A stretch of DNA of 43,430 nt from a virus. How positions within the stretch are numbered: the first letter of the stretch is position 1; each line of letters starts with the position of its first letter. Below are positions 2,726-42,889 of this stretch, one piece after another. The stretch lies in IMG/VR virus record IMGVR_UViG_3300003775_000002; one strand, 5' to 3'. A program made the position numbers and the translations under genes. Below the pieces are notes generated by a model that worked only from the letters and a program-made list of their open reading frames with translations, did not search any database and was not told the origin of the DNA.

Positions 2726-3790
2726 TCACGGCGCGACCTCCAACACAAAGCCCGGCTGGCGCGTCCGCTCTGCCTGCAGCGCGATATATTCGGGATTCAA
2801 CTCGGCGCCGAGCCACCGGCGGCCGAGCCGCTGCGCGACACTAGCTACCGTGCCCGAGCCCATGAACGGGTCGAAGACGATGTCGCCGGGCCGGCTGCCC
2901 GCCAACACGCAGGGTTCGACCAGCGCTTCCGGGAAGGTGGCGAAGTGCGCGCCGTCGAACGATTGTGTCGGGATGCTCCAGACGCTGCGACGGTTGCGCG
3001 TGTCGACCAGCCCGTTCACCGAGCCCGAGAACGACACGTTCTGTTTCACGCGCGGCTTGGCCGCCTTGTCATAGCCGCGGCCAAAGCCCACGCCGGTGCC
3101 GGTATATCGGCCCGTCAGCTCGCGGTGGCCACCCGGCGCCGTGTCCCATCCGCTGGGCATGGCCTTCGGGTTGACGCCAGATCCCCGCGCGTGCGCCGTG
3201 CCGCTGACCGGCTCCTGCATGGCGTCGAAGTCGTAGAAGTACTTCTCGCTCTTGGTCAGCAGGAACAGGTACTCGTGCGCTTTGGTGCAGCGGTCGCGCA
3301 CACTCTCTGGCATCGGGTTGGGCTTGTGCCAAATGATGTCCTGACGGAGCCACCAGCCGGCGTCCTGCAACGCAAACGCAAGGCGCCACGGCTGGCCCAC
3401 TAGGTCTTTCGGCTTCAGCCCTTCGACGCGCACGTCGCTGCGCGGGATCGACGTATCGTCGCGTCGACGGCTGGCCGTCATGGCTCGCGCCTTAGTTGAG
3501 GCCGGCGACGGCCCCCATGCCGCGCCGCGCGTGCCGGCGTAGCTGTCGCCCATGTTCAGCCACAGCGTTCCGTCGTCGGCGAGCAACTGCCGACAAAGAT
3601 CGAAGACGTCAACCATCCCGGCTATGAACTCCGGCAGCGTGGCCTCGAGGCCCAGTTGTCCATCGACGCCATAGTCGCGCAGACCCCAGTAGGGCGGGCT
3701 GGTGACGATGCATTGCACGCGCACGTCATCGGCGATCAGCGATCGCATGACCTCGCGGCAGTCGCCCTGGTAGCAGTGGTCGGTCAGCAT
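2726..3790 (-). CDS. DNA methyltransferase, amino-methyltransferase type (N4-C or N6-A), SPPY motif
   Basis: ORF trimmed to the ATG at 3790 (MLTDHCYQGDCREVM). It has the catalytic motif IVTSPPYW and a C-terminal AdoMet motif VFDPFMGSGTV (beta-class order). A GGAGG Shine-Dalgarno lies upstream. No cognate endonuclease is visible. Confidence 0.85.
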   Translation of the reverse strand: MLTDHCYQGDCREVMRSLIADDVRVQCIVTSPPYWGLRDYGVDGQLGLEATLPEFIAGMVDVFDLCRQLLADDGTLWLNMGDSYAGTRGAAWGPSPASTKARAMTASRRRDDTSIPRSDVRVEGLKPKDLVGQPWRLAFALQDAGWWLRQDIIWHKPNPMPESVRDRCTKAHEYLFLLTKSEKYFYDFDAMQEPVSGTAHARGSGVNPKAMPSGWDTAPGGHRELTGRYTGTGVGFGRGYDKAAKPRVKQNVSFSGSVNGLVDTRNRRSVWSIPTQSFDGAHFATFPEALVEPCVLAGSRPGDIVFDPFMGSGTVASVAQRLGRRWLGAELNPEYIALQAERTRQPGFVLEVAP

Positions 3791-3825
3791 GCTAGGATGC
3801 CTCCATCCAAAAGAAGGAGACTTCC

Positions 3826-4050
3826 ATGACCAGGGAGCCGTTTGTGCTGAAAGGCGAACACGTTTCCGTAGCCCTTTACATCGTGGATGCACCGGAAGGC
3901 CGCTTCGCATGGGAAATTGTCGTGACCGAGGACGGGGGTGACGAGATGATCGACAGGAAAATTGTCGGCTCCCTGAGCTACTCGACGCTGCAGGAAGCGG
4001 ACAAGGCCGGCAAGGAAATGCAGGCAAAGGTTGCAAAGGGCGCGGCGTAA
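3826..4050 (+). CDS. Hypothetical 74-aa protein
   Basis: A strong AAGGAGA Shine-Dalgarno lies 6 nt before the ATG. The sequence is plausible for a globular protein (FAWEIVVTEDGGDEMIDRKIVGSLSYSTLQEADKAGKEM) and faintly resembles YegP/DUF1508. Its stop is 2 bp from the stop of the convergent C5 methyltransferase. Confidence 0.7.
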   Translation: MTREPFVLKGEHVSVALYIVDAPEGRFAWEIVVTEDGGDEMIDRKIVGSLSYSTLQEADKAGKEMQAKVAKGAA

Positions 4051-4052
4051 CA

Positions 4053-4967
4053 TCACGCTGCCTCCCGAATTGCCGTGATCACGTCGCGCGCCACAGGCGG
4101 GCACACGGCGTTGCCCAGCAGATGCACGGCAGTGCGGTGCTGCTGTGGCAGTCGATAGTCAGCAGGGAAGCCCATGGCGGCGCGGCACTCGTCTGCGCGC
4201 AGCATACGCATGCGGTCGCCGTCGACGATTCCCCAGCGATCGCGCGTGGTAATGGTGCCCAGCGGTCGAGTCAGCGACCGGCCGCCTAGCTCATTTCCGT
4301 AGTAGGCGGTCAGGAACCGATCACCGTGCGCGCGGCGGCCATTCGCGATGCGGCTGAGCGTGGCAGCGGCCCGGCCCGGCTTCTCGATCGCTGACCAGTT
4401 GCCCGCAGCGAAGTCGATGATATCGGCGGCCGGCACATGTTGGCGCTGGGGCAGCTGCAGCATGAGCGGCCGTTCGCTGCGGCTCAGGACCAGGTACAGG
4501 CGCTCACGGTGCTGCGGCACTCCGTGATCTGCCGCATCGATGATGTGCGGCGCGACCTGATACCCCAGCGCCTGCAGCGCGAGGCGCCACGCGGGGTACA
4601 ACTTCCATTGGACGAACTCTGGCACGTTCTCGACGACACCGAACGACGGGCGGTGGTACTCGAGCGCGGACACGACAGCCCACGCTGTCGAGCGGCTGGC
4701 GTCGTGCTGCGGGTTGTTGGCGGACTTGCCGCGGGCCTTGCTGTGGCCTTGGCAGCAGGGCGACGCGAGCAGGATGTCGTGCGCCGGCACCTGTTCCCAG
4801 TTCGCCTGGTGCAGGTCTTGGCAGACGTGCTCCGTACCCGGGTGATTTGCCGCGTGCGTCTCCACGGCCACGGGCCAGTGGTTGCCTGCCCAGACCACCT
4901 GCACGCCGGCCATCTGCGCTCCCGTGGAAAAGCCGCCGGCGCCTGCGAAGAGGTCGATCGCCTTCAT
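4053..4967 (-). CDS. DNA (cytosine-5)-methyltransferase
   Basis: Motif I DLFAGAGGFS, motif IV SPCCQGHS (catalytic Cys) and motif VI VVENVPEF are present, with GNAVCPPV near the C terminus. Confidence 0.9.
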   Translation of the reverse strand: MKAIDLFAGAGGFSTGAQMAGVQVVWAGNHWPVAVETHAANHPGTEHVCQDLHQANWEQVPAHDILLASPCCQGHSKARGKSANNPQHDASRSTAWAVVSALEYHRPSFGVVENVPEFVQWKLYPAWRLALQALGYQVAPHIIDAADHGVPQHRERLYLVLSRSERPLMLQLPQRQHVPAADIIDFAAGNWSAIEKPGRAAATLSRIANGRRAHGDRFLTAYYGNELGGRSLTRPLGTITTRDRWGIVDGDRMRMLRADECRAAMGFPADYRLPQQHRTAVHLLGNAVCPPVARDVITAIREAA

Positions 4968-12222: not shown

Positions 12223-13215
12223 TTACAGCCTGTTCTTGATCTTGCGGGCGGGCACCGGGTGGGCGATGTAGTACATCCAGGTGATGGCTTCCGGATCGAA
12301 GGTGAAAACCTCCTGGTCGTTGTAGCTGCCGAGCCTGATGCCCTGGCGGCGCGACAGCAGGCGCTTGATCATCGTTTCGCCAGTGTTCAGCCGCACGAGC
12401 ACGTCGTCTTCGAGCTCCGGCTCGGTGCCCGGCTCGACCAAGGCAAACTCGCCCGGGTTGTAGCGGGGGATCATGGACAGGCCCACGACTGGTGTCAGGA
12501 AGGCCTGCGGATCGGCGCTGGCCACTTCTGCAAACTGCTGAGTTGCTCCCACCGGATAGTCTCCATCGGTCCATATCCGGTCAGGCAGGCCGCCTTGCGC
12601 GCGGCCCACAACCGGAATGGCCCGGTACTTCGCTGTATTCGCCTGATAGGTAAGGGGCGTCGGCTCTGCCGGCTCGTCGTCCGCCTTCTTCTTCGGCCTG
12701 GCGCTCTTGGCGGGCAGCGGCTTTGGCCGGGGATCGTCGAACACGGCAGCACGCGGAGCGCCCTTACCCATGACCAGCCAGACGGCGTTGTAGCCGAATG
12801 CCTCCTGAATGCCCACCGCCTGGTCGAGCCTGATCGTCTTGACCTCGCCTGACGCCCATTGCTCCAGCGTCTCTAGCGAAACGCCGGCGGCCTTGGCCAG
12901 AGCATACGGCTTGATATCGGCGTCGGCCAGGAGTGTCTTCATCCGTTCGCTCAGCCCATTGTCCACGTCGGTCGCCGGCTCCAGGCTGGCGTCATACGCC
13001 ATTGAACCCTTGCCCGTCTGCAGCCAAGTGGCGCTGCAGCCGATCAGCTTCTGGGCTTCGATCATTCCCGGCCGCGACATGCCGCGGCGCTCCCAGTTGT
13101 TGATCGTTTGCTGGGATTGGTTGAGGGCCTTCGCTATGTCGGTAGGCGTGGGCTGCTCTTGGAGCCCTCTCAGGGTGCGTACTGCCTCGTAGAGGCGAAC
13201 CATCGTTGCGTGCAT
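12223..13215 (-). CDS. CI-like prophage repressor with two tandem XRE-type HTH domains and a C-terminal S24 (LexA-like) autopeptidase domain
   Basis: HTH 1 is PTDIAKALNQSQQTINNWERRG. HTH 2 is PYALAKAAGVSLETLEQWASGE. The S24 domain has the Ser motif VVGLSMIP and the Lys motif ETMIKRL. The start is uncertain: the ORF is open to 13299 (AGGTGG Shine-Dalgarno), but 13216..13299 holds the OR operators. ATG 13215 or 13203 is therefore preferred. Confidence 0.85.
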   Translation of the reverse strand: MHATMVRLYEAVRTLRGLQEQPTPTDIAKALNQSQQTINNWERRGMSRPGMIEAQKLIGCSATWLQTGKGSMAYDASLEPATDVDNGLSERMKTLLADADIKPYALAKAAGVSLETLEQWASGEVKTIRLDQAVGIQEAFGYNAVWLVMGKGAPRAAVFDDPRPKPLPAKSARPKKKADDEPAEPTPLTYQANTAKYRAIPVVGRAQGGLPDRIWTDGDYPVGATQQFAEVASADPQAFLTPVVGLSMIPRYNPGEFALVEPGTEPELEDDVLVRLNTGETMIKRLLSRRQGIRLGSYNDQEVFTFDPEAITWMYYIAHPVPARKIKNRL

Positions 13216-13249
13216 GCGCGGGATGCTCTCACAGGTAAACGGATCGTTG

Positions 13250-13291
13250 ATAAACAGCGCGTTTGCCTTTTCCTTAAACATGGTGTTTAAT
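13250..13291 (+). promoter_or_regulatory. Predicted PR promoter with two 17-bp operators (OR)
   Basis: TTGCCT (13263..13268) is followed by a 17-nt spacer and TTTAAT (13286..13291). The operators are ATAAACAgcgCGTTTGC (13250..13266) and the perfect palindrome TTAAACAtggTGTTTAA (13274..13290), with centres 24 bp apart. Confidence 0.65.
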
Positions 13292-13322
13292 CTCGTCATG
13301 GACCACCTACCGAGAGCCCGAG

Positions 13323-29047: not shown

Positions 29048-29617
29048 ATGTCCGGAGGCATTTCAGCTACCACCATCGCCGCCGTCGCAGCGGGTGCGGC
29101 AGCGGCAGCCAGCGCGGCAAGCGCCATCTCCGCAGGTCAGCAACAAAGGCGACAGGCAAATCAACAGGCAGACGCGGCCGAGTACAACGCCGCGCTGAGC
29201 AAGAACCAGGCGACGGCGGCCTATGCGGCTGGCGTCGAACGCGAGTCGGCGCAAAGGCGACAGGCCCAACAGCAGCTGAGCCAGCAGCGTGCCGCCTTCG
29301 CGTCGTCTGGCCTCGATCCGAACAGCGGATCTGCACTGGACGTGCAGTTACAGAGCACCCGCAACGCCGAGCTTGATGCGCTGCAGACCCGGTATGAGGG
29401 CGTGCTGACAGGCCAGAACTACGAACAGAACGCTTCCATGGGTCAGTACCAGGCAGAAACCTTGCGGGATTCCGGCAGCGCGGCTGCGAAGAACTCGTAC
29501 TTGTCGGCGTCTGCATCCTTGCTGGGCGGCCTCAGCAGCGCGTACAGCATTGGACGGTCGCCGAGCAACCCGGCTCCTGTGGTCGAACGCAGCACCTACA
29601 TTGGAAGGCTCGGCTGA
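29048..29617 (+). CDS. Internal virion protein (small, Ala/Gln-rich)
   Basis: It has an N-terminal hydrophobic Ala-rich segment and a Q-rich helical region. This is typical of podovirus core proteins in this position. Confidence 0.6.
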   Translation: MSGGISATTIAAVAAGAAAAASAASAISAGQQQRRQANQQADAAEYNAALSKNQATAAYAAGVERESAQRRQAQQQLSQQRAAFASSGLDPNSGSALDVQLQSTRNAELDALQTRYEGVLTGQNYEQNASMGQYQAETLRDSGSAAAKNSYLSASASLLGGLSSAYSIGRSPSNPAPVVERSTYIGRLG

Positions 29618-29618
29618 T

Positions 29619-31694
29619 ATGGCAACCCGCATCCCAATTCCCCAATACCAACAGCAGAAGGCGCCGGCGCTTGAACAGCCCGGCGTTCGCGCTACTGCGG
29701 TTGTGACTGATACCGGCAGTGCACAGGCGCTGGGTCAGGTGGCAAACGCCTTCCAGCGTGTCGGCAACGTTGTCGAGCAGCAGAGTGCAGAGACCGCGCG
29801 TGCGTGGGTGTCGCAGGCCAGCAGCACCGATTACGTCAAATGGCAGGACCGCATGACGCAGTTGCAGGAAGCAGCTCAGCCTGGCGCCCCAGACTTCACG
29901 CCCAACCTTCTGAACGAGTTTGACGAGTACAGCAAGACGGCGCTGGCCAACGCGCCGGACGAGACGTCGAAGCGCTTCTACAGCATGCAACTGAATCAGC
30001 TGCGCCAGACGCTGGGCGGCCAGTCGGTCCGATGGGAGGCTGGGCAGCGGGAGTCGCATCGTGTGAGCCAATACGGCGCAGCGGCCGATGCTGACGCCGT
30101 GGCCATTGCGCGAGATCCGGCTCTGTACGGCGAGCGCCGAGCCGCCACCATGGCCGTGTTGAATACGTCGACCATGGACCCAGCGAAGAAGGAAGCGCTT
30201 CAGCAGTCGACGGAGACAAAGCTTGCCTACGCGGCGGGCTCGCGGATGGTGCTGGACAACCCGGCGCAGGCGTTGGCAGTGCTCAGCCGCAAGCCGGATG
30301 AGCCGATCCCCGAGGGCTATGAATGGGTGCCGCGGCTCGATGCCAATCAGGTCGTGCCGCTGATCACCAAGGCGCAAGGCTACGTCAACTCCCAAGCCGC
30401 AGCTGCCGAGCGTGCACGGGAGAAGGCCGAGCGCGAGCAGGAGCGGCGCGACAAGGTTGGTCGGGAAGCCTACGCCAGCATGTCGGAGTTGCTGGCCGAC
30501 GGGAAGATTCCGTCTCCCGAGTTCATCAGCGAGGTGGCCGACAAGACGACCGGTACCGTGGCGGCCGTGCCGTTCATGGCGCTGGTCAAGGAACAGGGCA
30601 ACGATGCGCGCTTCGCCACCTTGCCGCTCTCACAGCAGCAGGCGCGGCTGGAACAGATGCGTGCCCGCGCGGCAACGCCTGGCATCGGCACGGACCCGGC
30701 CGAGCACAAGGAATACGAGCGCCGGCTGCGCATGAACGCAGCCATTCAGCGCGATGCTGACCAGAATGCCTGGCAGGCGGCACAGGAACGCGGCGTGATT
30801 GTGCGTGCCCCCGAGGTGCCCCTGAACAGCGTGGGCGACGCCCAGAACCTGATCAACCAGCGCATGCGCAACATCGCCGACGTGGAGGATTGGGTCGGCA
30901 AGCCGGTCAGCCCGATGCAGCCGGACGAGGCTGGCCAGATCGGCAAGATCATTCGGAGCCTGCCGCCAGACCAGCAGTCCACGGCGCTGGCCGGATTCGG
31001 CGCGTCGATCGGCAACGCCGACCGCATCTCTGCCTTCGCGAAGCAGATGTCGGAGAAGGACAAGACGCTGGGCATGGCCATGACCTACGCCAACTCGAAT
31101 ACCTCACAGGGCCGGCTGACGTCCGAGCTGATCCTGCGCGGCGACCGCGCGCTGAAGGACGGCACGGCCAAGGTCGATCAGGCCAAGGAAACCGGCTGGC
31201 GCGCGGAGATCGCCAAGGAAATCGGCGATGCCACCTACAACCAGGACGTGCGCCAGTCTTGGATCGAATCGGCCTTCTACATCCAGGCGGCTATCGCGTC
31301 CGACGGCGGCGGCACCGACATCAAGCGTGCCGTGAACTTGGCCACCGGCGGCTTGCGGCAGCAGCGCGATGGCAGCAAGATCCCGCGCCCGTACGGCATG
31401 TCGGACGACACATTCACCCAGCGCATTGCCGCGATCAAGCCGACTGACATCGCGGTGCAGGCGCCGGACGGCCAGGTCTTCAGCGGCGCCACAGCGATGC
31501 CACTCGAACGATTCCTCCAGCAGCTGCCGCAGTCGTCGCTCGTGCACGCGGGGCAGGGCAAGTACGCCATCCGCGCCGGCCAGGGCTTCGTCACCAACAG
31601 CGCTGGTCAGCGCATCACGCTTGACCTGAACCCGCAGCGGCCGAACGCAACGCCGCCGAACGGCGCGCAAGGCCAACCCGCACGGAGCCGCTGA
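29619..31694 (+). CDS. Internal virion / ejection protein
   Basis: ORF trimmed to the ATG at 29619 (MATRIPIPQYQQQKAP). 691 aa, in the position of a podovirus core protein. Confidence 0.6.
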   Translation: MATRIPIPQYQQQKAPALEQPGVRATAVVTDTGSAQALGQVANAFQRVGNVVEQQSAETARAWVSQASSTDYVKWQDRMTQLQEAAQPGAPDFTPNLLNEFDEYSKTALANAPDETSKRFYSMQLNQLRQTLGGQSVRWEAGQRESHRVSQYGAAADADAVAIARDPALYGERRAATMAVLNTSTMDPAKKEALQQSTETKLAYAAGSRMVLDNPAQALAVLSRKPDEPIPEGYEWVPRLDANQVVPLITKAQGYVNSQAAAAERAREKAEREQERRDKVGREAYASMSELLADGKIPSPEFISEVADKTTGTVAAVPFMALVKEQGNDARFATLPLSQQQARLEQMRARAATPGIGTDPAEHKEYERRLRMNAAIQRDADQNAWQAAQERGVIVRAPEVPLNSVGDAQNLINQRMRNIADVEDWVGKPVSPMQPDEAGQIGKIIRSLPPDQQSTALAGFGASIGNADRISAFAKQMSEKDKTLGMAMTYANSNTSQGRLTSELILRGDRALKDGTAKVDQAKETGWRAEIAKEIGDATYNQDVRQSWIESAFYIQAAIASDGGGTDIKRAVNLATGGLRQQRDGSKIPRPYGMSDDTFTQRIAAIKPTDIAVQAPDGQVFSGATAMPLERFLQQLPQSSLVHAGQGKYAIRAGQGFVTNSAGQRITLDLNPQRPNATPPNGAQGQPARSR

Positions 31695-34027
31695 TGATCG
31701 ACGGATTGCTGCAGGACCAGATCGACACCACGCTGGATGACCGTCAGAAGCGCCCGGTTGCGGCGCCACGCCCGCAGTCTGGGTTCTCGGCCTGGAACAC
31801 GATCAAGGCGCCTGTCGTTGGTGCGGCTGCCGGCGGGGTGGAGGCGGGTGGCTTCGGTGCAGATGTGCTGAGCGCGTTCGGCCAGGTGCAGGCCGGATAC
31901 GGCGCCCAGGCTGATCCGTCGCTTCTGCTGTCTCCGGAAGAGATGGAAAAGCGCCGGGATGAAGGCGACGCGGCTCGCGCGCAGGTTGCTAGCGGCGAAG
32001 CCTTCAGTAGCACGGTGGGCACTGGCCTGCGCGCAAGCGCGCGCGATCTGATGCCCGATCCGGTGACGTCCAACGTGGTCGAGCAGACGCTGTTTCAACT
32101 CGGCCGGTTCGGTGGCAAGGCGGTGGGCTACTCGCTGGCGGCCGGGCCCGCCGTGGGCGCTGCGCTGGTGGCCGGCGACGAGGGGATGACCGAGGCCGAC
32201 AGGCTGAAGGCGGAAGGCGTCGACATCGAAACGCGCACCAAGGTCGGTATCGTGGCCGGCGCGGCGGCAGGCGCTGGTGTGGCATTGCCTGTGGCCGGAC
32301 GGTCGATCGCGCAAACCGCCGCGCTGGTCGTGGCTGGCGGGCCAGGCGCGTACATCGCCCAGCAGGCTGCGTCGCGCTCCATCCTAAAGAACGCCGACTA
32401 CAGCAAGATCGCCGACCAGTACGACCCTTTCGACCCCGTCGGCCTGGCCGTATCGACGCTGGTGCCCGCTGGCTTTGGAGCCTGGGCGACCCGTGGCGCG
32501 GCCCGCGCTGGTGCCAGGCCGGCGGCGGACTTCGATCCTGCGGCAGCCCGCCAACTGGTCGACATGGGAATGCGCGAGCGGCAGGGCCTGCCGTACAACG
32601 ACGCCCGGCTGGACGCCTACGCCGTGACGGCTGCCCAACGCGCTGGCGTGCCGCCCGAGATTATCTTGGCGGTCAAGAATGCCGGCGAAAAATCGGGTAG
32701 CAGCGCAGCAACTTCGCCGGTGGGCGCGAAGGGCATCATGCAGTTCATGGATGCCACGTGGGGCCAGTACGGGAAGGGCCGAGACGTACGTGATCCGGTG
32801 GCCAACATCGACGCTGCGGCCGACTTCCTGGCCGACCTCGGGAAGCAGTACGACGGAAACTGGCGCGCGGCGCTGGCCCACTACAACGGCGGCGTGAAGA
32901 ATGCCGAAGCCGTGGTCAGGACCGGCCGCCCGATCTACAGCGAGACCATCAAGTATCTGGATCGCACCGACCGGTTTCTGGCCGAACATTCTGGCGAAGC
33001 CGCCGGACGCGCTGCCGCTGCGGATCCGGACGCCGTGGCCGCCGCCCGCCTTCAACAGGTCCGTGACACCGTCGATTCCTGGAACCTGAAAGACCCGACC
33101 GACATTGCGGCCGCGCAGGATCACCTGGCCGCCATCGTGCGTGCCTCTGACCAGTTGGGCGGCGGCGCGCGGGTGGACGTCAGCGACGTGGTGCAGTGGG
33201 ACACCCTGCAGAACGCCCGGATGCTGGACGACATGGTCGGCCGCCTCGAGGCCGCGCGCGCTGACTTGCTGCCCGAGGCTGGGCAGGTTGCCGAGCCTGG
33301 CGCTATCCGGTCGCTGCGCGGGGAACTGGACCAGCTGCGCAGCACCTTGCCGGACACCAGCGACGATGCGATCAAGGCGAGGGCCAAGGAAATCCAGACG
33401 GCGGACAGCGGACGGACGAGCTATAAGCAGGCCCAGGCCGCAGCACGCAAGGAACTGACAGCGGCACTGGATGAGCACCAAGGCCGGATGGCGGCGCTGG
33501 AGCGTCAGATCGAGACGAACCGCGGCGCCGAGCAAGCGCGTCAAGCCGTGCAGGCGCTGGACGAGCAGCTAGGCGGCGTGCGTTCGGCCCGTGCTGGGTT
33601 GGATGCACCACCGAGCGCGCCGCGCCAGACCGCGCTGGCCGCCGGAGAACTGGCTCGCACTGGCAAGCCGGCCGGTACACCAGCCGCCGACGCTGAACCA
33701 GCCGCCCAGAAAGCCGGGAAGGAAGCCGCTTCGAACGGTACGGAACCAGCAAAAAGCGGGACAGAACCCGCATCCAATGCAACGGAAGCGCCGGTTTATG
33801 CAACAACAGCGCCGAATAATGCAGCCGATGCTGCTATGGCATCGATCGACGCCCAGGCGGCACAGATCGCCCGCCTGTCACCGGACATGATGGTGCAGCT
33901 CGAAGGGATGGATGCGCCGGTGCGATTGGCCGATGCGCTCGAAGCGGTCCGCCGTGAAGCCGAGGCAGATGCCGCTGACGCGCCGCTGATACAGGCAGCA
34001 GCAGAGTGCTTCCTGCGCAGCGCCTAG
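31694..34027 (+). CDS. Internal virion protein with lytic transglycosylase (SLT) domain
   Basis: AGEKSGSSAATSPVGAKGIMQFMDATWGQYG...ALAHYNGG is the SLT E-S / GxMQ / YN motif set. It has Gly/Ala-rich hydrophobic N-terminal segments. Confidence 0.8.
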   Translation: MIDGLLQDQIDTTLDDRQKRPVAAPRPQSGFSAWNTIKAPVVGAAAGGVEAGGFGADVLSAFGQVQAGYGAQADPSLLLSPEEMEKRRDEGDAARAQVASGEAFSSTVGTGLRASARDLMPDPVTSNVVEQTLFQLGRFGGKAVGYSLAAGPAVGAALVAGDEGMTEADRLKAEGVDIETRTKVGIVAGAAAGAGVALPVAGRSIAQTAALVVAGGPGAYIAQQAASRSILKNADYSKIADQYDPFDPVGLAVSTLVPAGFGAWATRGAARAGARPAADFDPAAARQLVDMGMRERQGLPYNDARLDAYAVTAAQRAGVPPEIILAVKNAGEKSGSSAATSPVGAKGIMQFMDATWGQYGKGRDVRDPVANIDAAADFLADLGKQYDGNWRAALAHYNGGVKNAEAVVRTGRPIYSETIKYLDRTDRFLAEHSGEAAGRAAAADPDAVAAARLQQVRDTVDSWNLKDPTDIAAAQDHLAAIVRASDQLGGGARVDVSDVVQWDTLQNARMLDDMVGRLEAARADLLPEAGQVAEPGAIRSLRGELDQLRSTLPDTSDDAIKARAKEIQTADSGRTSYKQAQAAARKELTAALDEHQGRMAALERQIETNRGAEQARQAVQALDEQLGGVRSARAGLDAPPSAPRQTALAAGELARTGKPAGTPAADAEPAAQKAGKEAASNGTEPAKSGTEPASNATEAPVYATTAPNNAADAAMASIDAQAAQIARLSPDMMVQLEGMDAPVRLADALEAVRREAEADAADAPLIQAAAECFLRSA

Positions 34028-34311
34028 TGGATGACCAAGGACAGGATGATGCCGGCGAGCGCGATGGTGCCGACGATGGTGAACCAGGTGCGGAAGGCGC
34101 GCCAGGCCGCGCGGAAGCCCGCTGGCAGGTTCTTGCTGCTGGTTCCTGATAGCACGCACGCCGGCACGACGCCGCACACCCAGACGAACGCCGCCACGTA
34201 CGCAGCCGGGTGCTGCGGCGGCAGGGCGCTGGCCATCCACCCGAGCGCCGGGACGCCGAGCAAGATCCACCAGACGCCGGCGGTGTGGGTGAGGAATCGA
34301 ATCAGAACCAT
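34024..34311 (-). CDS. Small polytopic membrane protein (95 aa) encoded antisense within the virion operon
   Basis: It exactly fills a 296-bp gap with no plus-strand gene. The minus frame has very G/C-biased third positions. TM segments are GVWWILLGVPALGWMASAL, AAYVAAFVWVCGVVPACVL and WFTIVGTIALAGIILSLVI. Its stop overlaps the neighbouring stop on a CTAG. Confidence 0.7.
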   Translation of the reverse strand: MVLIRFLTHTAGVWWILLGVPALGWMASALPPQHPAAYVAAFVWVCGVVPACVLSGTSSKNLPAGFRAAWRAFRTWFTIVGTIALAGIILSLVIH

Positions 34312-34323
34312 GGGAGCGAGTAT

Positions 34324-36837
34324 ATGACACCGCAATGCCGCACTGCCGTCAGTGCCGCCGCTGGCCGGCCGCTGACGGACGCCGAGGTCAAGAAGATCGA
34401 TGATCGGCTATCAGCCACCATGCGCCAGATGGCGCGCCGTGACCCGGCCGCGTGGCAGGCCATGCCCCTGTCGCAGCGTGTGCTGGACGCCTCCCGCGAG
34501 GCGATGGCCCAGATCCAGCAAGAGGCCGCGCTGAAGGTCACGCGCGCCAGCCTGCAAGTGATCAAGACGGCGGCCATGGATACCCGCGTCACTGACCTGA
34601 TGACGCAGTTTTCCGAAGGCCGTAGCAAGGCTCTGGTCCGGGAAATGGACCTGACGTCGGCCTACGCCGAGGGCGTCAAGCGCGAGAACATGTCTCAGTT
34701 GATGGATCTGCTCGATGCTGCCGACAGCCGGCAGGGCGCGGGGGCGATCCGGCGTGGTCTGATGTTCCTGTTTGACGCCGAAAACCCTGGCATGACCCGT
34801 GATCTGGCCGTCGAAATAATTGCCAACGCCAATGGCGCCACGGGAAACACGCTCGCACAGAAGGGTGCCAAGGCGTGGCTGGACACCATCGAGCGAATGC
34901 GCCAACGCTTCAACACCTCAGGCGGAGATGTCGGCCAGCTCGACTATGGCTACCTGCCGCAGCCGCACGACAACGTGCGCGTGCGCGGTGATGGCTCCAA
35001 CGCGGCGCGCGCCGCATGGGCGAACAACACCCTGCCGCTGCTCGATCGCAGCCAGTACGTGCGCGAAGATGGCGCCCGCATGAACGATGCCGAAGTTCTG
35101 GACTTCCTGCGCGAGGCCTGGACGACCATTGCCACGGATGGCCTTAACAAGACGACACCGGGTAGCCGGCCAGCACCGGGCAGCGCCGCGCGCGCGAATG
35201 CCGGCAGCGCGACACGCCAGATCCACTACCGCGACGGGAATGCCTATCTGGAATACATGGGGCAGTACGGCGCGGGCAGCATGTACGACGCCATGCTAGG
35301 GCACGTCGGCAGGTTGGCGCGCGACATCGCGCTGGTCGAGCGATACGGCCCCAACCCGAATCAGCAGATGCGTCTGCAGTTTGACTTGGCTGCTCGGGCC
35401 GACAACGGGCTGAAGCGCTCGTTCGGGATGCTGCCGCAGTCGTATTGGGACGTCCTGAACGGCACCAGCAGCGCGCCAGTCAGCGGCCGCATTGCAGAGA
35501 TCGGCACGCATGCCCGGAACATCCAGACCTTCGGCAAGCTGCAGGGTGCCATCCTGTCCAGCGTGACCGACGTCGGCACGTATTTCGTGACCACCGGATT
35601 CAACAATCTCAGCTACTGGGACGCGCTGCGCAACATCCCCCGCCAGATGAGCGGCGATACCCGCGACTTTCTGTCCATGCACGGCATCATCGCCGAGTCG
35701 ATGATCTCAGACCTGAACCGTTGGAGCGGGGACAACATTCGGCAGACCTGGTCGGGCAGGCTGGCCAACAGCACGATGAAGCTGTCGTTCATGAACGTCT
35801 GGACCGACACGCTGCGCCGTGCCTACAGCATGACCATGATGAACGGCATGGCCAAGCTGGCGAAAACGGACTGGAAGGGCCTGACCGAATACGACCGCTG
35901 GCGCATGACAAGCAAGGGCCTGACCGAATCGGATTGGGATGTCATCCGCCAGGCCCAGTTGACTGCCTACAACGGCCAGGATTTTCTGACGCCAGAGTCT
36001 ATCCGCGCCGGCGGCGACCCGCGCGCCAACGAGGTGGTGGCCAAGGTGCTGGGGCTGATCACCGACGAGTCGGAATATGCAGTGCTGAACCCGGACCTGT
36101 CTACCAAGGCATTGCAGTCGTGGGGCGGCACGCAGCGCGGCACGCCGCTGGGCGAGCTGGCGCGCTCAGTGATGCAGTTCAAGTCGTTCCCGATCGCTAT
36201 GATCTCGCGGCACTGGGGAAGGTTCACCGATGCTCCCGGTGGCATCCCTGGCGCGCCTACGTTTCTCGGCAACCGTGGCTTCTACGGCGCGGCGATGATG
36301 GTGTCGCTTACCGCGCTGGGTGCGATCGCCTTCCAGAACAAGCAACTGGTGCAAGGCAAAGACGCGATCGACATGGACCCGTTCGAAAACCCGAAATTCT
36401 GGCTGCGTGCGTTGGCGCAAGGCGGCGGCCTCGGTATCGTGGGCGACTTCCTGTTGACCGACCCTACCGAGAACCCGGGTGACTCCACGGCCAACGCTAT
36501 CAAGAACGTTGCCGGGCCCAGCATCGGCAGCGCGTTCGACCTGGTGGGCAAGCTGGGCATCGAGAACGTCTATCAGGCGGCGCACGGCAAGGACACGCAT
36601 GTGGGCGCCGAGACGCTGCGTTTCGCGCGTAACCACCTGCCGTATGTGAATCTCTGGTACGGCAAGGCCGCACTGGACGCAGCGGGTCTGGCCGCGTTGC
36701 AGGAGAACCTGTCGCCTGGATACCACTCGAAAATGCGCCAGCGCGCGCAGCGCGATTGGAACCAGGATTACTGGTGGCGGCCGGGCGAGCCAACGCCTGA
36801 AAGGGCGCCGGATATCGGTGCGGCATTCGGCAGGTAA
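34324..36837 (+). CDS. Large internal virion / ejection protein
   Basis: ORF trimmed to the ATG at 34324 (MTPQCRTAVSAAAGRPLTDAEVKKIDDRL). A GGGAG Shine-Dalgarno is present. 837 aa. Confidence 0.6.
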   Translation: MTPQCRTAVSAAAGRPLTDAEVKKIDDRLSATMRQMARRDPAAWQAMPLSQRVLDASREAMAQIQQEAALKVTRASLQVIKTAAMDTRVTDLMTQFSEGRSKALVREMDLTSAYAEGVKRENMSQLMDLLDAADSRQGAGAIRRGLMFLFDAENPGMTRDLAVEIIANANGATGNTLAQKGAKAWLDTIERMRQRFNTSGGDVGQLDYGYLPQPHDNVRVRGDGSNAARAAWANNTLPLLDRSQYVREDGARMNDAEVLDFLREAWTTIATDGLNKTTPGSRPAPGSAARANAGSATRQIHYRDGNAYLEYMGQYGAGSMYDAMLGHVGRLARDIALVERYGPNPNQQMRLQFDLAARADNGLKRSFGMLPQSYWDVLNGTSSAPVSGRIAEIGTHARNIQTFGKLQGAILSSVTDVGTYFVTTGFNNLSYWDALRNIPRQMSGDTRDFLSMHGIIAESMISDLNRWSGDNIRQTWSGRLANSTMKLSFMNVWTDTLRRAYSMTMMNGMAKLAKTDWKGLTEYDRWRMTSKGLTESDWDVIRQAQLTAYNGQDFLTPESIRAGGDPRANEVVAKVLGLITDESEYAVLNPDLSTKALQSWGGTQRGTPLGELARSVMQFKSFPIAMISRHWGRFTDAPGGIPGAPTFLGNRGFYGAAMMVSLTALGAIAFQNKQLVQGKDAIDMDPFENPKFWLRALAQGGGLGIVGDFLLTDPTENPGDSTANAIKNVAGPSIGSAFDLVGKLGIENVYQAAHGKDTHVGAETLRFARNHLPYVNLWYGKAALDAAGLAALQENLSPGYHSKMRQRAQRDWNQDYWWRPGEPTPERAPDIGAAFGR

Positions 36838-41758: not shown

Positions 41759-42889
41759 CTACTCGGCCCGCATTTGCATCGGCACCGTTTCGGGTGCCAT
41801 CACCTCGCGTTTCGGCCGGAACAACTTGGCCAGGGCCGTTCCCCATGCTGCTGTCGGGTCCTCAATATACCGCTTCCAGAAATGGGCGACGATCAACCCG
41901 GCGGCGGTCAGCACCAGCATCCGGCCCCATTCGCCGGCAATGCCGATGGGGTGGGGGAAGTACTTGATGGCCACGCGCTCGAGCGTCCAATGGGTCAGGT
42001 ACAGGGCGAAGGATATGTCCCCCAGCCACACGGCAAAACGTGGAATCCTCAGCTGACCATGGTGCTCTGCGAACAGGGCGCCGACCAGCAATACAGTCGT
42101 CGGCAGCGCGGCCGATAGCAGCGACATCTTCAAGTCAGTGGTGACGTAGGACAGGCCTAGGAAGAATGCGCCGACGCCCATCAGCCCGAACGAGAAGCCA
42201 ATAGACACCCGGTCACGATACTTCGCATAGATCCACGCGCAGCCAACTCCCGCCAGAAATTCGAGCATCAGCGGGTTCGTCGCGAGCCGGGCATACAGGT
42301 TGTTGAACGGGATGACGCTGTTGTGCGGGTTGATCGACGGCGCAAGGCCATAGGCCATCGGCGCCACCAGCACCAAGCCGGCCAGCGCGATCGACACCGC
42401 TGCCAGAGCGAAGCGGCCAAACACCAAGCAAGCGCAGAAGATGGCATAGAACGCCATCTCATAGTTCAGCGTCCAACCCACCTCATTGAGCATCTCCGAG
42501 TAGTAGGGCGCAGGCAGGTTGCCCAGTGGGTAGAACGCCAGCATCTTCAGCAGGTCGTCATTCGTGGCGCCACGGCCAAGGATATAGGCGATCACCGCCA
42601 TGCTGGCCCAGAACGCAGGAGCCACGCGGAACGCGCGCTTGATGCCGAACTCTAGTGGGGATACCGGGCCGTTACTTCGCGAGAGCACGCCCACCCAGGC
42701 AAGAATGAAGCCGCTGATCACGAAGAAGATATCGACGCCGAGAAAGCCCTTCATCACCACATTCCATACAGACTCGTCCACTGCCTGGACGCCCGTCGGG
42801 AACTGGAATCGCATATGGAAGATGAAAACCGACATTGCCGCGAACCCGCGCAGCGCTTGGACGGAATCAAGCTTTTGGTTGTACGACAT
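41759..42889 (-). CDS. Acyltransferase family 3 membrane protein (O-antigen/exopolysaccharide acetylase-like), lysogenic conversion candidate
   Basis: KLDSVQALRGFAAMSVFIFH is the family signature. The protein is polytopic and hydrophobic throughout. It is on the opposite strand at the prophage end, with an AT-rich upstream region. Confidence 0.85.
   Translation of the reverse strand: MSYNQKLDSVQALRGFAAMSVFIFHMRFQFPTGVQAVDESVWNVVMKGFLGVDIFFVISGFILAWVGVLSRSNGPVSPLEFGIKRAFRVAPAFWASMAVIAYILGRGATNDDLLKMLAFYPLGNLPAPYYSEMLNEVGWTLNYEMAFYAIFCACLVFGRFALAAVSIALAGLVLVAPMAYGLAPSINPHNSVIPFNNLYARLATNPLMLEFLAGVGCAWIYAKYRDRVSIGFSFGLMGVGAFFLGLSYVTTDLKMSLLSAALPTTVLLVGALFAEHHGQLRIPRFAVWLGDISFALYLTHWTLERVAIKYFPHPIGIAGEWGRMLVLTAAGLIVAHFWKRYIEDPTAAWGTALAKLFRPKREVMAPETVPMQMRAE

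Follow-up and report, generated by a model that had tools for sequence, protein, structure and literature searches.

The viral sequence IMGVR_UViG_3300003775_000002 from IMG/VR, whose full 43,430 nucleotides (nt) are referred to here as the window, carries a conserved, overlapping antisense gene within its block of ejection-type genes, and this gene belongs to a family of small prophage inner-membrane proteins. It lies on the minus strand at 34311..34024, between plus-strand genes for a 777-amino-acid (aa) protein with an SLT lytic transglycosylase domain and for an 837-aa virion structural protein. Judged by its pattern of substitution among relatives, the frame almost certainly represents a real membrane-protein gene. 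By analogy with characterized proteins, its product may exclude superinfecting phages at the step of DNA entry, a function that we propose tentatively as the best explanation and consider possible, a little short of probable.

The source's gene calls annotate the gene at 34311..34024 and show a virion operon that is contiguous save for the gap there, so that a preliminary description of this DNA was right to call it the only sizeable gap in an operon otherwise packed end to end. The layout it gave, comprising the open reading frame (ORF), a CTAG shared by two stop codons, a 12-bp spacing of divergent starts and a TATACT hexamer 7 nt from the minus-strand ATG, is exact in every coordinate:

34024..34311, minus strand: three-helix membrane-protein gene, 95 aa; ATG at 34311..34309, stop TAG as the reverse complement of 34024..34026
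34024..34027, both strands: CTAG, the 4-nt overlap of the convergent stops; the TAG of the SLT gene is 34025..34027
34312..34323, intergenic: 12-nt spacer between the divergent start codons, with GGGAG at 34312..34316 (plus strand) as the Shine-Dalgarno sequence of the 837-aa gene
34319..34324, minus strand: -10-like hexamer TATACT, 7 nt 5' of the minus-strand ATG

The minus-strand ORF has a G+C content of 0.59/0.55/0.92 at its three codon positions, and its product has three hydrophobic segments, in keeping with the G/C-biased third positions and three transmembrane helices noted earlier. The gap as a whole has 68% G+C, compared with 64-68% in the two flanking genes, and its third-position G+C (GC3) is 0.92, compared with 0.76-0.82. 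At a genomic G+C of 63%, with long antisense ORFs common throughout, neither ORF length nor GC3 is evidence on its own, and relatives were therefore compared. The comparison also had to deal with a second frame in the same gap, which the preliminary description had overlooked although its account of the minus-strand ORF holds:

34031..34327, plus strand: 98-aa shadow ORF, having its third codon positions in common with the minus-strand gene; GC3 0.90; judged not to be a gene

This plus-strand ORF begins 3 nt past the upstream stop, and its end overlaps the next gene in an ATGA, as expected of junctions within an operon. That it is the real gene, and the minus-strand ORF a chance frame, is highly improbable. 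In its favour are the open frame with its high GC3, the operon-like junctions and the fact that some gene callers report its product, in only 4 relatives (P0022-P0025). A protein search with the 95-aa product, by comparison, recovered 21 protein clusters at 60-100% identity, all of 94-98 aa and with 25 invariant residues. Substitutions were compared between the two frames across 14 loci, with the neighbouring virion gene as control. Mean pairwise differences at codon positions 1/2/3 are 0.22/0.17/0.34 in the minus frame and 0.14/0.08/0.39 in the control. Minus frame, plus frame and control have, in that order, amino-acid identities of 73%, 66% and 84%, mean BLOSUM62 scores of +0.17, -0.62 and +0.56 where residues are substituted, and ratios of nonsynonymous to synonymous substitution (dN/dS) of 0.35, 0.53 and 0.16. 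The same asymmetry separates the control gene from its own antisense frame. The plus frame is moreover interrupted by an internal stop in locus L009 and lacks its start ATG in locus L011, and no sense ORF of more than 33 aa exists in the gap of several relatives, most of them of lower G+C, where the antisense ORF is intact. When the 95-aa protein was recoded synonymously in simulation with the codon usage of this phage, the plus frame stayed fully open in 33% of cases. The ATGA at its end is dictated by the next gene, whose Met-Thr start is conserved, and the product of the plus frame resembles low-complexity antisense translation. The plus-strand ORF was rejected as a true gene on the substitution pattern, the interruptions in relatives and the recoding simulation; on the same grounds, these sequence comparisons identify it as a compositional shadow and the minus-strand ORF as the gene under selection. 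The earlier view that the minus strand has a real gene here, encoding a small membrane protein with several passes, is thus upheld by the 21 clusters, by selection in the minus frame and by helices predicted with AlphaFold.

The gene is retained at one junction across relatives. All 14 loci found via the 95-aa protein (14/14), among them the chromosomes of Cupriavidus campinensis (GCA_030149145.1, contig JASBSC010000071.1, locus L003) and C. oxalaticus JPY540 (locus L004), have the antisense gene between the SLT gene and a gene of 833-841 aa, and distant members (~35-45% identity; ~35-40% for one 98-aa member) occupy the same position. A second sample comprised 80 viral contigs fetched via the 837-aa protein at 56-93% identity, 2 of which are too short upstream to judge. 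Most of the 80 have a 130-300-bp gap at this junction, and in most such gaps there is an antisense ORF of ~60-80 aa whose product has the motif IPLxVWAGSGSWRxxxxAxxxY and two hydrophobic helices. In a profile comparison (hhalign probability 92%, E 6.6e-7), helices 2-3 of the 95-aa family align with this two-helix family. With both profiles, a family member is detected in 66/80 contigs (66/78 evaluable, ~85%), always antisense and only at this junction within the loci. The gene is absent from the other 12 evaluable contigs (12/78), in which the two virion genes are ≤53 bp apart. It is likewise absent, with the virion genes abutting, from 10/10 cultured relatives inspected: BcepC6B, KL4, vB_E332, MPK9, YeP5, RpY1, Tr60_Ab31, epsilon15, phiV10 and 66FD. 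A tblastn search of 50,697 phage records returned no match for the 95-aa protein, the distant 98-aa member or a two-helix member. Every neighbourhood inspected places the family at this junction in phages of this type; no member was seen free in a chromosome or within another phage module. Together, these comparisons establish an unnamed family of predicted two- or three-helix proteins of 54-98 aa, encoded antisense at a single junction.

The preliminary description had proposed that the antisense frame be sought in relatives and had regarded the gene as a one-off insertion. Relatives with the gap do keep an open antisense frame, and gap and gene together are a feature of the lineage, held at the junction rather than inserted once. 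A moron, in the sense of Juhala and Hendrix, is recognized by presence or absence at a junction, its own promoter and terminator, deviant composition and expression from the repressed prophage (PMC3594210). Presence or absence at the same junction is seen here (the gene is missing from BcepC6B, KL4, vB_E332 and the 12 contigs noted above), and the base composition of the gap lies at the level of its flanks. From its distribution, the gene looks like an old resident of the lineage with losses in some branches, not a recently gained moron.

The 95-aa protein is predicted to be an integral inner-membrane protein. AlphaFold2, run on the family alignment, places helices at residues 2-29, 35-56 and 62-94 with a mean predicted local distance difference test score (pLDDT) of 80. 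Invariant and near-invariant residues are concentrated in helix 2 and the loop that follows it (GVVPACVLS...FRAAWRAFRTW). By the positive-inside rule, the N-terminus (with the invariant R5) and the amphipathic loop FRAAWRAFRTW (K60, R67, R71 and R74) would be cytoplasmic, leaving perhaps ~6-8 residues exposed to the periplasm, namely a short PPQHP loop and the last residues. Neither the three-helix nor the two-helix form matches a family in Pfam, PHROG, PADLOC or NCBIfam, and the best hit of a Foldseek search against a viral structure library has an E-value of 1.5. Database members are labelled only 'hypothetical protein', and the few with a named source organism are all from Burkholderiales (Cupriavidus, Massilia and Roseateles). 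No description of an antisense membrane-protein gene at this junction was found in the literature.

Nesting between the two virion genes is very tight. In a set of 56 distinct complete members, no nucleotide separates the divergent start codons in 18, the two codons overlap in 6, and 50 (overlaps included) have a spacing of 12 nt or less. At the other, convergent end, nearly all wider relatives show a 3' overlap of 4-32 nt; in the close loci the stop is at the homologous position in 14/14 (TAG in 11, TAA in 3), with a 4-nt overlap by gene calls in 12. In members with a 0-nt spacer, codons 2-5 of the antisense gene contain the virion gene's Shine-Dalgarno sequence (GAAGGA, AAAGGA or AGGAG), and one stretch of DNA is both a ribosome-binding site and coding sequence of the opposite strand. 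In L042, L047, L050, L070, L071 and other loci it lies inside the antisense codons K/Q/R-S-F, in the 24 nt 5' of the start of the 837-aa homologue. This overlap probably explains the conserved M-(K/Q/R)-S-F start of the antisense proteins. No Shine-Dalgarno sequence for the antisense gene itself was found in the spacer 34312..34323 or in the relatives examined.

There is little room for the gene to have signals of its own, with no intergenic space around it and both ends overlapping its neighbours. TATACT or TACAAT stands at the same 7-nt distance in 14/14 close loci, and in the wider family a TANNNT lies 5-10 nt upstream in 13/59 loci, compared with a mean of 0.4 at other offsets. If functional, the TATACT/TACAAT element would give a leaderless or nearly leaderless mRNA. 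The hexamer is confounded by its position, overlapping the neighbour's start codon and the A/T-rich Shine-Dalgarno spacer. It has no accompanying -35 element, is not detected by a sigma-70 scan and belongs mainly to the close clade, all of which leaves the promoter role first ascribed to it weak. TTGACG/TTGTCG-like hexamers in relatives were considered as -35 elements and rejected, being only 14 nt from the -10-like element and the reverse complement of Arg-Gln codons in the neighbouring gene. On the 3' side, a terminator scan found 2 sites against 0.8 expected, including one candidate near the gene:

33756..33771, minus strand: weak terminator-like hairpin with a 5-bp stem and a T-run, ~250 nt 3' of the minus-strand stop; the only such hairpin there

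This hairpin is probably not functional.

The flanking genes and the features that identify the window as a prophage are as follows:

31694..34027, plus strand: upstream convergent neighbour, 777 aa, with an SLT lytic transglycosylase domain; virion-internal (ejection-type) protein
34324..36837, plus strand: downstream divergent neighbour, 837-aa virion structural protein, homologue of BcepC6B gp17 and epsilon15 gp17
29048..29617, plus strand: T7 gp14-like protein, 189 aa (Pfam PF24072 T7_gp14), at the start of the ejection-protein block; coordinates converted from locus L018
236..1603, minus strand: integrase
12223..13299, minus strand: CI-type repressor with an S24 peptidase domain
41759..42889, minus strand: Acyl_transf_3 (O-antigen acetylase-type) gene at the right prophage end, just before a host GGDEF gene

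The ejection-protein block runs from the T7_gp14-like protein through a 691-aa protein and the 777-aa SLT protein to the antisense gene and the 837-aa protein. The 777-aa protein matches Pfam SLT (1.8e-17) and phrog_342, 'internal virion protein with endolysin domain', and its counterparts are BcepC6B gp16 and KL4 gp51. A full-length match of the 837-aa protein to phrog_684 (4.6e-209) supports ATG 34324 as its start, and tblastn with this protein retrieves 127 phage records, including a 'putative internal virion protein' of Pelagibacter phages. The earlier designation of both flanks as ejection-protein genes is therefore reasonable for the upstream gene, with its SLT domain and phrog_342 match, and only plausible for the downstream one, through its internal virion homologues. 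In its C-terminal part (window 33700..33800) the SLT protein has a short Ala/Thr/Glu/Pro-rich repeat (NGTEPAKSGTEPASN), and the terminator-like hairpin at 33756..33771 lies on the opposite strand of this stretch. At one locus (L013:3285-6272, minus strand) the SLT protein has 995 aa, compared with ~760-777 aa elsewhere, and the antisense gene is unaltered; the region 5' of the shared stop is thus variable in length.

With an integrase, a CI/S24 repressor and a host GGDEF gene past its end, the window is an integrated temperate prophage, which makes expression of the antisense gene in the lysogen plausible. The Acyl_transf_3 gene is of a classical lysogenic-conversion or receptor-modification type, and through it the prophage probably has at least one further layer of exclusion. 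Two adjacent DNA methyltransferase genes, one of N6/N4 type and one of C5-cytosine type (2726..4036 and 4053..4967, both minus strand), lie in the leftward early operon by the integrase and may serve in anti-restriction.

Other small genes occur around the gp17-type virion gene. Pseudomonas phage MPK9 (L103:5045-5455), Yersinia phage YeP5 (L104:5028-5375) and Burkholderia phage vB_E332 (L102:5586-5864) each have a small minus-strand, antisense gene directly 3' of the gp17 homologue, different from the membrane-protein gene described here. The YeP5 and vB_E332 products have a common C-terminal motif, GGCxxYIxxLNxY, and the MPK9 product has a lipoprotein-type signal (LGGC) and only a looser C-terminal match. 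These three genes may form a second antisense family of envelope or exclusion type beside the same virion gene. In epsilon15 (gp18, L101:5754-5948) and phiV10 (p21, L100:5485-5625), two-helix membrane proteins are encoded on the plus, sense strand right after the gp17 homologue and are followed by a terminator, so small membrane-protein genes recur around this virion gene. Epsilon15 gp18 was considered as a homologue of the antisense family and rejected (hhalign probability 0.3%; of the two, only gp18 was compared, not phiV10 p21).

If the antisense gene acts in superinfection exclusion, as the preliminary description suggested, the following course of events is proposed. In the lysogen the late operon would be silent, and for that reason the opposing gene could be transcribed there, at a low level, from just past the TATACT/TACAAT element in this clade. 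The protein would enter the inner membrane and disturb the insertion or assembly of the DNA conduit that incoming phages of the same type form with their ejection proteins, with normal adsorption and a block to DNA entry as the outcome. On induction, strong convergent late transcription would switch the antisense gene off. A more specific version, which we think distinctly unlikely, would make the product a co-inherited cognate immunity protein that recognizes, within the membrane, the conduit proteins encoded on both sides of its gene. The overlaps would then form a switch, with the protein made and a leader RNA masking the start of the 837-aa gene in the lysogen, and late transcription silencing the antisense gene on induction; gene and flanks would be a lock-and-key cassette fixed in a podophage lineage instead of a movable moron.

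Several results weigh against exclusion at DNA entry. The sigma-70 scan near the gene gave no minus-strand promoter, the -10-like hexamer reaches only part of the family (13/59 loci), and the first 30 codons of the 837-aa gene, the site required for a promoter or leader, show no drop in synonymous variation. The hairpin at 33756..33771 is not conserved in 13 close relatives. No sequence or fold likeness to any exclusion or defence protein emerged from Pfam, PHROG, PADLOC, NCBIfam or Foldseek. Given the minimal periplasmic exposure, any interaction with an incoming conduit must take place within the membrane or at its cytoplasmic face. Finally, ordinary base composition combined with ~85% presence suits a core gene of the lineage better than a typical exclusion moron, and a role in the phage's own cycle would account for conservation and composition equally well.

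Such a role, with the protein made early or before late transcription, is unlikely, with several points in its favour. The protein could change the inner membrane against secondary infection in the manner of T4 Imm, protect progeny from ejecting into debris, or serve in lysis timing or in the handling of membrane-active ejection proteins. A constant position in 66/78 evaluable relatives, across which the neighbouring protein varies from 56 to 93% identity, a base composition like that of the neighbours, and very tight nesting with regulatory sequence shared with a neighbour are all traits of a core gene. The sizes and helix numbers of the family also resemble those of holins of class II (two helices, ~60-75 aa) and class I (three helices, ~95 aa). 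The likeness to holins is one of size and helix number only, and a holin reading was rejected: neither Pfam nor PHROG gives a holin match, the protein ends 1-3 residues past its last helix without a charged C-terminal tail, and the lysis genes are ~6 kb downstream on the other strand. The 12 evaluable relatives that lack the gene, with their virion genes ≤53 bp apart, mark it as dispensable for virion function, and the virion genes abut in cultured relatives too; an antisense position within the late operon would also be awkward for a gene needed during late transcription. It is rather unlikely that the product is a prophage-expressed membrane protein with some benefit other than the exclusion of phage DNA, whether in lysogenic conversion (envelope physiology or stress tolerance) or as a type I toxin-like or prophage-stabilising peptide held in check by antisense RNA from the late strand. 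A small, almost wholly membrane-embedded protein of a prophage with minimal periplasmic exposure would suit such a function, overlap with convergent and divergent transcripts would provide built-in antisense control, and the functions of many moron products are unrelated to phages (PMC3594210). A strict tie of the family to one pair of virion genes, at the only junction where it is seen, is however hard to square with a general host factor. Type I toxins usually have <60 aa and one helix, which speaks against the toxin variant.

It is improbable that the key product is not a protein but the antisense RNA, keeping leaky translation of the 837-aa gene down in lysogens or fixing the proportion of upstream to downstream virion proteins. 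With starts 0-12 nt apart, any 5' leader of a minus-strand transcript would necessarily be the complement of the region where translation of the 837-aa gene begins, and the 3' end of the antisense gene overlaps the SLT gene. Against this stand purifying selection at the protein level, conserved helices and 25 invariant residues, and the maintenance of a two- to three-helix protein down to ~23% identity within the two-helix set and across the two- and three-helix forms. A conserved RNA element, which would appear as reduced synonymous variation, was not seen.

Should exclusion at DNA entry prove correct, the family would be a new and fairly widespread group of DNA-entry blockers in Burkholderiales prophages, tied to the genes of their likely target. 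It would offer a natural system for how a nearly fully embedded mini-protein stops the trans-envelope conduit of a podophage, and for the co-evolution of exclusion specificity and ejection proteins; if it is merely another small prophage membrane protein, its interest would be routine. For annotation, the gene is nameless and is missed or assigned to the wrong strand by some callers, and the one locus seen with both calls (L003) has the shadow ORF called as well. The case also illustrates that what looks like empty space in a late operon may contain a conserved antisense gene, and that the first codons of such a gene can serve its neighbour as a ribosome-binding site.

Among known systems, the antisense protein would by analogy work most like SieA, HK97 gp15 or T4 Imm, and it is a member of none of those families. 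P22 SieA is a prophage inner-membrane protein of a temperate podophage that blocks DNA injection by relatives, and genetically it targets gp16 and gp20, the ejection proteins that build the trans-envelope conduit (PMC10883804). The antisense protein is likewise a predicted multi-pass inner-membrane protein of a temperate podophage, with its gene between ejection-type genes; the family-library scans revealed no similarity, SieA itself not having been compared directly. SieA is also larger and is encoded in the immI/mnt region, outside the virion operon. T4 Imm, an 83-aa inner-membrane protein with two predicted helices that stops DNA transfer across the membrane, is comparable in size and architecture to the two-helix members of the antisense family. 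It comes from a virulent phage that makes it early in lytic infection, and so differs in genomic setting, and the Pfam scan of the 95-aa protein returned no family. Orientation against late transcription is shared with lambda bor and with conversion genes of the O-antigen acyltransferase type, which are expressed in the lysogen and of which the window has one (41759..42889, minus strand). Genes of that kind occupy the ends of late regions, with intergenic space, whereas the antisense gene is nested with overlapping ends.

HK97 gp15, a small inner-membrane protein encoded in the tail operon, is produced from the prophage and stops genome entry, leaving receptors unblocked; it acts on the tape-measure channel, and the block depends on the tail of the incoming phage (PMC3594210). 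A YebO-like protein and the first 'moron', gp15 has bacterial (YebO) homologues, and its gene is deviant in G+C and equipped with a promoter and terminator of its own (PMC3594210). The antisense family, by contrast, has no homologues outside this phage junction in the searches made, and its gene opposes the operon, lacks recognizable signals, has the composition of its neighbours and is present in ~85% of relatives. The likeness to gp15, which is encoded next to the gene for the DNA-channel protein, is one of product and place: a small, predicted inner-membrane protein with its gene inside the virion operon.

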